Shown here: one piece after another, positions 3,364 through 3,744 of the stretch | Layout of the letters: each line of letters starts with the position of its first letter | Position numbering within the stretch: the stretch's first letter is position 1 | Assembly (NCBI RefSeq): GCF_003334335.1 | Contig: NZ_QOWQ01000072.1 | Length of the DNA stretch: 7,660 bases | Origin: Escherichia coli | GTDB taxonomy: Bacteria; Pseudomonadota; Gammaproteobacteria; Enterobacterales; Enterobacteriaceae | Reading direction: 5' to 3' (one strand) | Program-made: the position numbers and the translations under genes | The notes under the pieces: generated by a model | What the model was told of the DNA's origin: nothing | The model's database searches: none | What the model saw: the letters and a program-made list of their open reading frames with translations, nothing else

Positions 3364-3744
3364 ATGGATCAGACTGAAGAAAATATCGTGACGAATGACA
3401 CAGATGCTGTGACGAATGGCGACACGGAAAACGCAGAGGCGATCGCAAATGACACGGTTAATCTCAGGGTTCCTGTTGTCTGCGGTAATAAGACGGTTTC
3501 CAGCGTGAAGATTGGGGCGCTTGCGCGTCAGGTGGGCTCGCTTCGAGGGATCCGCATGACGGACCTGTTCAACACCGATGTTGATGCTGCCGCCATTTTT
3601 CTGGAACGCGTAACTGAACCTCACCTCAGCCGCGCGGCACTTATGTCAATGTGCCCGGAAGACTTCTTTAAACTGTACGAGGTGGCAGTCGGTTTTTTGC
3701 TTCCCTCGTCAGCGAAGAAGGCGCAGGAGGCGGGCGGCGCGTAA
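3364..3744 (+). CDS. E: Tail assembly chaperone (P2 gpE-like), 126 aa with an acidic N-terminal extension
   Basis: SD GGGAGA about 8 nt upstream of ATG 3364. The C-terminal two-thirds resemble gpE (SLRGI, VGFLLP). The 3' end carries a T6G slippery heptamer. The first ~30 residues are a D/E/T/N-rich segment not expected from P2 gpE, which is ~91 aa as I recall. Confidence 0.8.
   Translation: MDQTEENIVTNDTDAVTNGDTENAEAIANDTVNLRVPVVCGNKTVSSVKIGALARQVGSLRGIRMTDLFNTDVDAAAIFLERVTEPHLSRAALMSMCPEDFFKLYEVAVGFLLPSSAKKAQEAGGA

Follow-up and report, generated by a model that had tools for sequence, protein, structure and literature searches.

A predicted disordered, acidic N-terminal tail on the gpE-type tail assembly chaperone of a P2-like Escherichia coli prophage

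The gpE gene of a P2-like prophage opens with 31 codons that lie ahead of the conserved chaperone core and hold two copies of an imperfect 21-bp direct repeat. The first-pass annotation of the window (the whole stretch of DNA analysed, 7,660 nt) offered two readings of this segment, a slippage-prone region of variable length or an acidic module added to the tail chaperone. Is the segment translated, does it vary in length as a slippage-prone repeat would, and what could an acidic extension do for a protein of this kind? The answer that we favour, and hold to be moderately probable as a whole, is that 3364-3456 encodes a translated, disordered, acidic tail of gpE, which would have grown by in-frame duplications and would serve as a charge or solubility module.

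The gpE gene and its place in the prophage

The source element is a P2-like (Xuanwuvirus-like) E. coli prophage, and the window is its tail-gene block (Table 1). The window DNA is carried by 14 of 5426 complete E. coli genomes, all at least 99.8% identical. The copy of the prophage block in strain EC2 adjoins a tRNA-Leu gene, and integration sites vary among relatives (tRNA-Leu, serS, an HU gene and others). Both in the window (72-7576) and in the related loci L001 and L007-L013, the genes FI-FII-E-E'-T-U lie on the strand opposite to D, ogr, and the fibre and baseplate genes. This inverted-block layout, unlike the canonical P2 gene order, was kept by all relatives examined, and a hok/gef toxin gene adjoins ogr at the prophage edge wherever the upstream flank was available. 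Minus-strand open reading frames across the segment (3245-3448 and 3316-3624) are considered by-products of the coding strand.

Table 1. Coordinates of features in the window
Feature	Position	Strand	Basis or remark
ogr/Delta-like gene	72-266	-	
gpD-like gene	308-1453	-	
Sheath gene FI	1595-2800	+	
Tube gene FII	2800-3312	+	
Hairpin GGGGCGGC-loop-GTTGCCCC, between tube-gene stop and gpE ribosome-binding site	3331-3351	+	RNA fold
Shine-Dalgarno GGGAG, 7 nt before ATG 3364	3352-3356	+	
gpE ORF, 126 aa (complete)	3364-3744	+	ORF translation; PGAP: phage tail assembly protein WP_001537179.1
Codons 1-31 of gpE, acidic T/N/D/E/A-rich N-terminal tail	3364-3456	+	Outside Pfam core
Repeat unit 1, VTNDTDA, starts with GTGACGAATG	3388-3408	+	
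Repeat unit 2, VTNGDTE, starts with GTGACGAATG	3409-3429	+	12/21 nt identical to unit 1, ungapped
Partial third unit, IANDT, holds AATGACAC at 3448-3455	3442-3456	+	Abuts first core strand
gpE chaperone core, residues 32-112	3457-3699	+	Phage_TAC_7 / TAC fold
Slippery heptamer T_TTT_TTG, predicted -1 frameshift giving gpE+E'	3693-3699	+	Zero-frame register TTT TTG
E' reading frame (-1)	3696-3899	+	Open to TAA 3897-3899; overlaps tape-measure start
Tape measure gpT, presumed gpE client	3892-6723	+	PGAP start, ORF; PF10145 in relatives
gpU	6726-7199	+	
Tail-fibre assembly gene	7235-7576	-	

Judged from its sequence, the ORF at 3364-3744 is a P2 gpE-type tail assembly chaperone (Phage_TAC_7). It matched PF10109 (Phage_TAC_7) at residues 31-112, weakly (Pfam, E 7e-4), and phrog_103 ('tail protein') with E 1.5e-23; an NCBIfam search with gpE returned no family match, and a PDB sequence search with the gpE family profile gave no significant match. 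In the AlphaFold2 model the core has pLDDT 88-95, its first strand spans residues 31-40, and the protein conforms to the tail-chaperone fold. The gene lies between those of the tube and the tape measure, in the same order in all related loci. Pfam, PHROG and AlphaFold2 thus bear out the earlier assignment of the ORF to the gpE-type tail chaperones, with the segment of interest N-terminal to the conserved core. The core was said to begin at VNLRVP, and both the Pfam match and the first predicted strand do start there, at residue 31. Near the start of the core, the window clade reads PVVCGN at 3478-3483 (gpE residues 39-40), whereas a P-I-x-R-G motif is found in most of the family, so that C40 replaces the common arginine of PIxRG.

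A -1 frameshift giving gpE+E' is predicted at a slippery heptamer, T_TTT_TTG, that is unchanged across five diverged loci and is found in a further relative, L013. PF06528 (Phage_P2_GpE) matched residues 139-174 of the modelled gpE+E' fusion (E 6.5e-14), and the E' region matched phrog_1756 and phrog_6416. This predicted product, which would share its N-terminus with gpE, is absent from the RefSeq/PGAP annotation of the prophage; other gene callers place a 41-aa PF06528 ORF in the E' region. In L001, RefSeq/PGAP calls a 23-aa 'hypothetical protein' within the E' frame (20529-20600, equivalent to window 3828-3899). The tape-measure ATG 3892 overlaps the E' stop in the arrangement ATGAGTAA. A mechanical ORF call for the tape measure begins at GTG 3838, while PGAP starts it at ATG 3892 (MSNNLQ...).

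P2 gpE and gpE+E', whose frameshift biology was reportedly described by Christie et al. in 2002, resemble the window proteins in their position between FII and T, in the TAC_7 core, in a T_TTT_TTG near the 3' end and in an E' domain (PF06528) that ends at the T start. They differ in the N-terminus and in core sequence: the P2-type gpE of phage 899 has 91 aa with about 6 pre-core residues, as opposed to 126 aa and a 31-aa acidic tail in the window, the cores are about 30% identical, and the window has C40 where most have R. The tail assembly chaperones gpG/gpGT of lambda and gp13 of HK97, whose roles are said to have been set out by Xu et al. and Pell et al., have no detectable sequence similarity to gpE. 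We know of no description of an acidic repeat tail on either of them.

Translation of the segment, its repeat and its length

The first 31 residues of gpE are probably translated, because the ATG and its Shine-Dalgarno sequence are conserved, the segment evolves with dN/dS ratios like those of the core and its one indel is in frame. Across five loci (the window and four lineages with 77-85% protein identity), CCCGGGAGAAAAA and ATG 3364 are invariant, and the sole indel is an in-frame 18-nt insertion in L011. Tail dN/dS (Nei-Gojobori) was 0.23-0.50 in 8 of 9 informative pairs, and core values were 0.20-0.52; the remaining pair, the window and L009, gave 0.93 on very few sites. The predicted gpE product from ATG 3364 includes MDQTEENIVTNDTDAVTNGDTENAEAIANDT.

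The repeat strings reported at first pass proved exact. The two copies of GTGACGAATG, at 3388-3397 and 3409-3418, are in frame with a spacing of 21 nt, AATGACAC recurs at 3394-3401 and 3448-3455, and the motifs are encoded as described, the translation reading MDQTEENI-VTNDTDA-VTNGDTE-NAEA-IANDT-VNLRVP.... As evidence of a repeat these strings are weak, for they exceed chance only marginally. Units 1 and 2 rise to 16 of 21 identical nucleotides if one codon gap is allowed, with the GGC codon taken as an insertion, and Tandem Repeats Finder reported no array within 3300-3800 even at score 30. Of 1000 dinucleotide shuffles of the full window, 347 contained an exact 10-mer direct repeat at most 60 nt apart. 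When the shuffling was confined to the 97-nt segment, a repeat of the same type appeared in 279 of 20000 dinucleotide shuffles (1.4%) and in 1233 of 50000 codon shuffles (2.5%). Amino-acid self-similarity of the tail was not above that expected from composition (reached by 106 of 500 shuffles). A second close 10-mer direct repeat, TGGTTGCCGA, lies in the sheath gene (1965-1974 and 1990-1999, 25 nt apart) and illustrates that chance readily produces repeats of this kind in the window. The several near-identical head-to-tail copies of a tandem repeat were thus not found: Tandem Repeats Finder returned nothing, there are two units, and amino-acid self-similarity is at chance level. However, the copies at 3388 and 3409 agree at three synonymous positions, which hints at a real but old duplication within a low-complexity segment. 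The segment is best taken as a low-complexity D/T/N/E/A stretch with a probable vestigial duplication.

The suggestion that the region is slippage-prone and variable in length fails within E. coli populations and stands over deeper time, between relatives. All 14 complete E. coli genomes matched the gpE query at full length as one aligned piece. When E. coli genomes were searched with the gpE gene by distant blastn, nothing came up beyond these 14 near-identical copies, so that collection contains no intermediate alleles. From the 90% identity cluster, 40 of 43 members were read and 15 listed, a 61-aa partial sequence not being among those retrieved. The 126-aa members listed differ in the tail by point substitutions only, and the retrieved listed members of other lengths owe them to C-terminal frameshifts or deletions, partial sequence or an alternative start call. 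No copy-number polymorphism was found among closely related strains, that is, in the 14 complete genomes and the 126-aa cluster members listed. Between more distant relatives the tail does change, with lengths of 31, 37 and 72 aa among prophages of the same gene layout; the 37-aa tails of P0008 and P0159 carry a visible VTQGD/VATQGD duplication, and distant viral-contig relatives have tails of 42 aa (L040) and 31 aa (L061).

The longest of these tails belongs to L013 (GCA_902849835.1, protein P0035), whose gpE has 168 aa and a 72-aa tail with net charge -27. This locus shares with the window the placement of hok, ogr and D on one strand and FI-FII-E-T-U on the other, and an acidic N-terminal tail of V-x-N-D type at the same position. 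A 15-bp x 6.3 tandem array at 5013-5106 (unit AATGATGATGTCGTG, giving NDDVV; Tandem Repeats Finder score 81) encodes this tail; the array is statistically clear, its self-score being reached by 1 of 500 shuffles, where the window has a vestigial two-unit trace. The VTNDTDA/VTNGDTE of the window looks like a decayed form of the V-x-N-D theme in L013. A blastn search with the repeat-bearing gene of L013 against E. coli genomes and phages found no close relatives.

Three other readings of the segment bear on these data. Translation might begin at GTG 3388 or GTG 3409, part of the extension then being a 5' leader. Both codons are in frame, with no other start codon in frame from 3364 to the core, and a metagenome gene call (P0173, 118 aa) begins at the first of them. 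We nevertheless consider such a mis-set start improbable: neither GTG has a convincing ribosome-binding site, whereas the good Shine-Dalgarno sequence with proper spacing at ATG 3364 is invariant in five loci, codons 1-8 are still open and mostly conserved, and the context of the second GTG differs in L011. Starting at a GTG would in any case still leave an acidic tail of 16-23 aa, and close to the core there is no start in frame, the next one, GTG 3505, falling inside the second predicted core beta-strand, where it would remove the first conserved strand. A contingency repeat that generates gpE length variants within populations by slippage has on its side the exact 10-mer at an in-frame 21-nt spacing, the true array at the same position in L013 and the variation of tail length between sub-lineages. 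It is largely refuted and very improbable, however, with two degenerate copies that Tandem Repeats Finder does not recognise, no length variant either in the 14 complete genomes or in the tails of the retrieved cluster members, and a length of exactly 126 aa kept in three lineages at 79-85% identity. The third reading is a DNA or RNA element, in the form of direct repeats that bind a regulator or of mRNA structure that tunes gpE translation, and we give it next to no probability. The 21-bp spacing does equal two helical turns, and both copies are identical, synonymous positions included, in four loci; but these four are close relatives, and L011, the locus that has diverged furthest, shows 2 changes in copy 1 and a copy 2 interrupted by changes and by the 18-nt insertion. 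RNA folding of 3310-3470 was no better than that of shuffles (z -0.64), with no structure beyond an upstream hairpin, and a promoter and terminator scan of 2700-4000 found no promoter-like site and nothing else relevant; given these negative scans, the nucleic-acid reading was dropped. The hairpin itself (Table 1) is stable and recurs in 5 related loci, where it differs by G-C/G-U changes and one double change. Lacking a T-run downstream, it does not qualify as a classic terminator; an influence on gpE translation or on mRNA processing is possible. What we retain for 3364-3456 is thus a coding segment, and not a contingency locus: a charge-carrying disordered tail that would have grown by old in-frame duplications.

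Acidic tails and charge balance in the gpE family

The gpE tail, rich in T, N and A, contains 9 D/E and no K/R in 31 residues (net charge -9). AlphaFold2 gave residues 1-30 a pLDDT of 46-55 and no secondary structure (no DSSP elements). The leader is accordingly modelled as an intrinsically disordered, strongly acidic tail that precedes the folded chaperone domain, and the description of it as an added acidic module is upheld by its composition and by its predicted disorder. A literature search on the acidic N-terminal region of tail chaperones found nothing relevant.

A family profile search of 1.84 billion representatives yielded 933 gpE family members. Pre-core length ranged from 0 to 90 aa (median 22) in the best 149 of the 933 representatives, a survey that favours tailed members because the profile included tail columns. 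Composition was taken from 89 tails of 15-45 aa (81 representatives, the window protein and seven close relatives), which are rich in T/A/D/E/N, 78% of them net negative, with a mean charge of -2.5. Among the best 80 viral-contig relatives most tails have 2-9 aa, and a Xuanwuvirus-like subset has 24-42 acidic residues; the pre-core segment counts 6 residues in P2-like phage 899 (gpE 91 aa), 25 in P88 and 21 in phiE12-2. The window tail ties for the highest negative charge density, -0.29 per residue, among 76 tails of at least 15 residues, and its close relatives retain a net tail charge of -5 to -9 despite substitutions. The comparison of homologues thus shows extensions that are neither identical nor universal, which leaves the idea of an addition to the core intact. 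Many, though not all, members of the gpE family carry a polar N-terminal tail of 15-45 aa, in most cases acidic.

The nearest named phages illustrate how far such tails can diverge. The Xuanwuvirus phages P88, 503458 and 500465-2, together with viral contigs, have polar or acidic pre-core tails of 24-42 aa, as the window does, and their tail-gene DNA is similar to that of the window around E' and T. In contrast, their tails cannot be aligned with the window tail, and core identity is about 26-33%; the P88 tail, MKETKNIDTENTVVTDTVKETSERG, is much less acidic (-2), while the 42-aa tail of L040 has a net charge of -9.

Charge was analysed in 116 single-domain representatives (P0010-P0157) with less than 50% mutual identity, the statistics ignoring shared ancestry. 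Tail and core net charge were strongly anticorrelated (Spearman rho -0.76). It fell to -0.62 when the core was counted from its thirteenth residue, and tail charge showed no correlation (0.00) with the preceding 12 core residues by themselves, which indicates that the anticorrelation is not a boundary artefact. Total charge varied less (SD 1.40) than the tail and core parts (2.02 and 1.86), averaging -2.9 to -3.0 across the three classes with shorter tails and -3.9 where tails have 30-45 aa. In the locus set, core charge was -3 to -5 in short-tailed gpE and -2 to +2 in long-tailed gpE. This compensation between tail and core supports the view that the tail carries negative charge that the chaperone needs. 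Consistently, the tails keep their charge and biased composition (-5 to -9 in the close relatives; rho -0.76 in the family) while sequence and length drift, and the window tail combines predicted lack of structure with biased composition. At the same time, total charges of -7 in the window gpE and -27 in L013 lie well beyond the family norm of -3 +/- 1.4, so simple compensation does not fully explain this lineage.

The presumed client was also considered. In nearly all loci the net charge over residues 1-300 of the tape measure is positive, and in the window it is +9. Tail length was weakly correlated with this charge (rho -0.32, p 0.01, with redundant loci) and tail charge was not (rho -0.10); these values do not show the tail and the tape measure varying together, and we place no reliance on such a link.

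A possible role for the tail

On the reading that we favour, the tail would arise and alter its length by occasional in-frame duplications or indels of short V-x-N-D-like units, and the 21-bp repeat would be the eroded trace of one such duplication, stable in present-day E. coli populations. The gpE family would keep a net negative charge that, in long-tailed members, sits in the tail and not in the core. By analogy with gpG/gpGT of lambda and gpE/gpE+E' of P2, gpE would coat the tape measure and the frameshift domain would recruit tube subunits; the chaperones would then come off and be missing from the finished virion. The acidic tail would extend outward from the chaperone oligomer, where it would probably hold the chaperone/tape-measure complex in solution and give it a charge that suits the basic N-terminal region of the tape measure, until the chaperone gives way to tube subunits. 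The tail may also stabilise the spiral oligomer of the chaperone.

A described protein that bears on such a role is Bg_9562, a tail chaperone from a Burkholderia gladioli prophage with a disordered polar N-terminus, in which deletion of 16 N-terminal residues destabilised filaments (PMC9603447). It differs from the window gpE in several respects: Bg_9562 has 111 aa and a tail of about 12-16 aa that was not reported to be markedly acidic, and it was studied for antifungal activity, not for tail assembly (PMC9603447).

It is unlikely, though the idea deserves some weight, that the segment is a neutral low-complexity appendage, translated and with nothing specific to do, which drifts in sequence and length since a disordered N-terminus is tolerated. 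Beyond the close clade its sequence shows little conservation, many members, P2-like phage 899 included, manage with 2-9 pre-core residues, the amino-acid repeat signal is at chance level, and tail dN/dS reached 0.93 in one pair. Neutral drift fits poorly, however, with tail dN/dS values that are mostly 0.2-0.5 and core-like, with the net charge of -5 to -9 kept in all close relatives, with a family-wide compensation that holds total charge near -3, and with the effect of the N-terminal deletion in Bg_9562 (PMC9603447). The excess charge of the window lineage raises a further alternative, which we regard as a long shot: that the hyper-acidic tail of the hok-ogr-D / inverted FI-FII-E-T-U lineage, growing by repeat expansion, has gained a separate function. 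As a polyanion that mimics DNA or the tube lumen, it could accompany the basic tape measure. It could also be a variable shield against recognition of the conserved chaperone fold by a host sensor; sensing of tail assembly chaperones has been reported for STAND proteins of the Avs type (bioRxiv 10.64898/2026.01.04.697583).

For annotation, ATG 3364 should be kept as the gpE start and the -1 frameshift product gpE+E' should be added to the gene. Current understanding of tail assembly is not overturned; gpE of this prophage is a known kind of protein with a common but under-described type of tail. The more general point is that gpE-type chaperones keep their net charge close to -3, split between a variable disordered tail and a folded core. 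This split offers a testable idea of what the tail may do, namely electrostatic matching to, and solubilising of, the basic tape measure, and the window lineage and its relative with a 72-residue NDDVV-repeat tail are natural extremes with which the charge idea could be tested.
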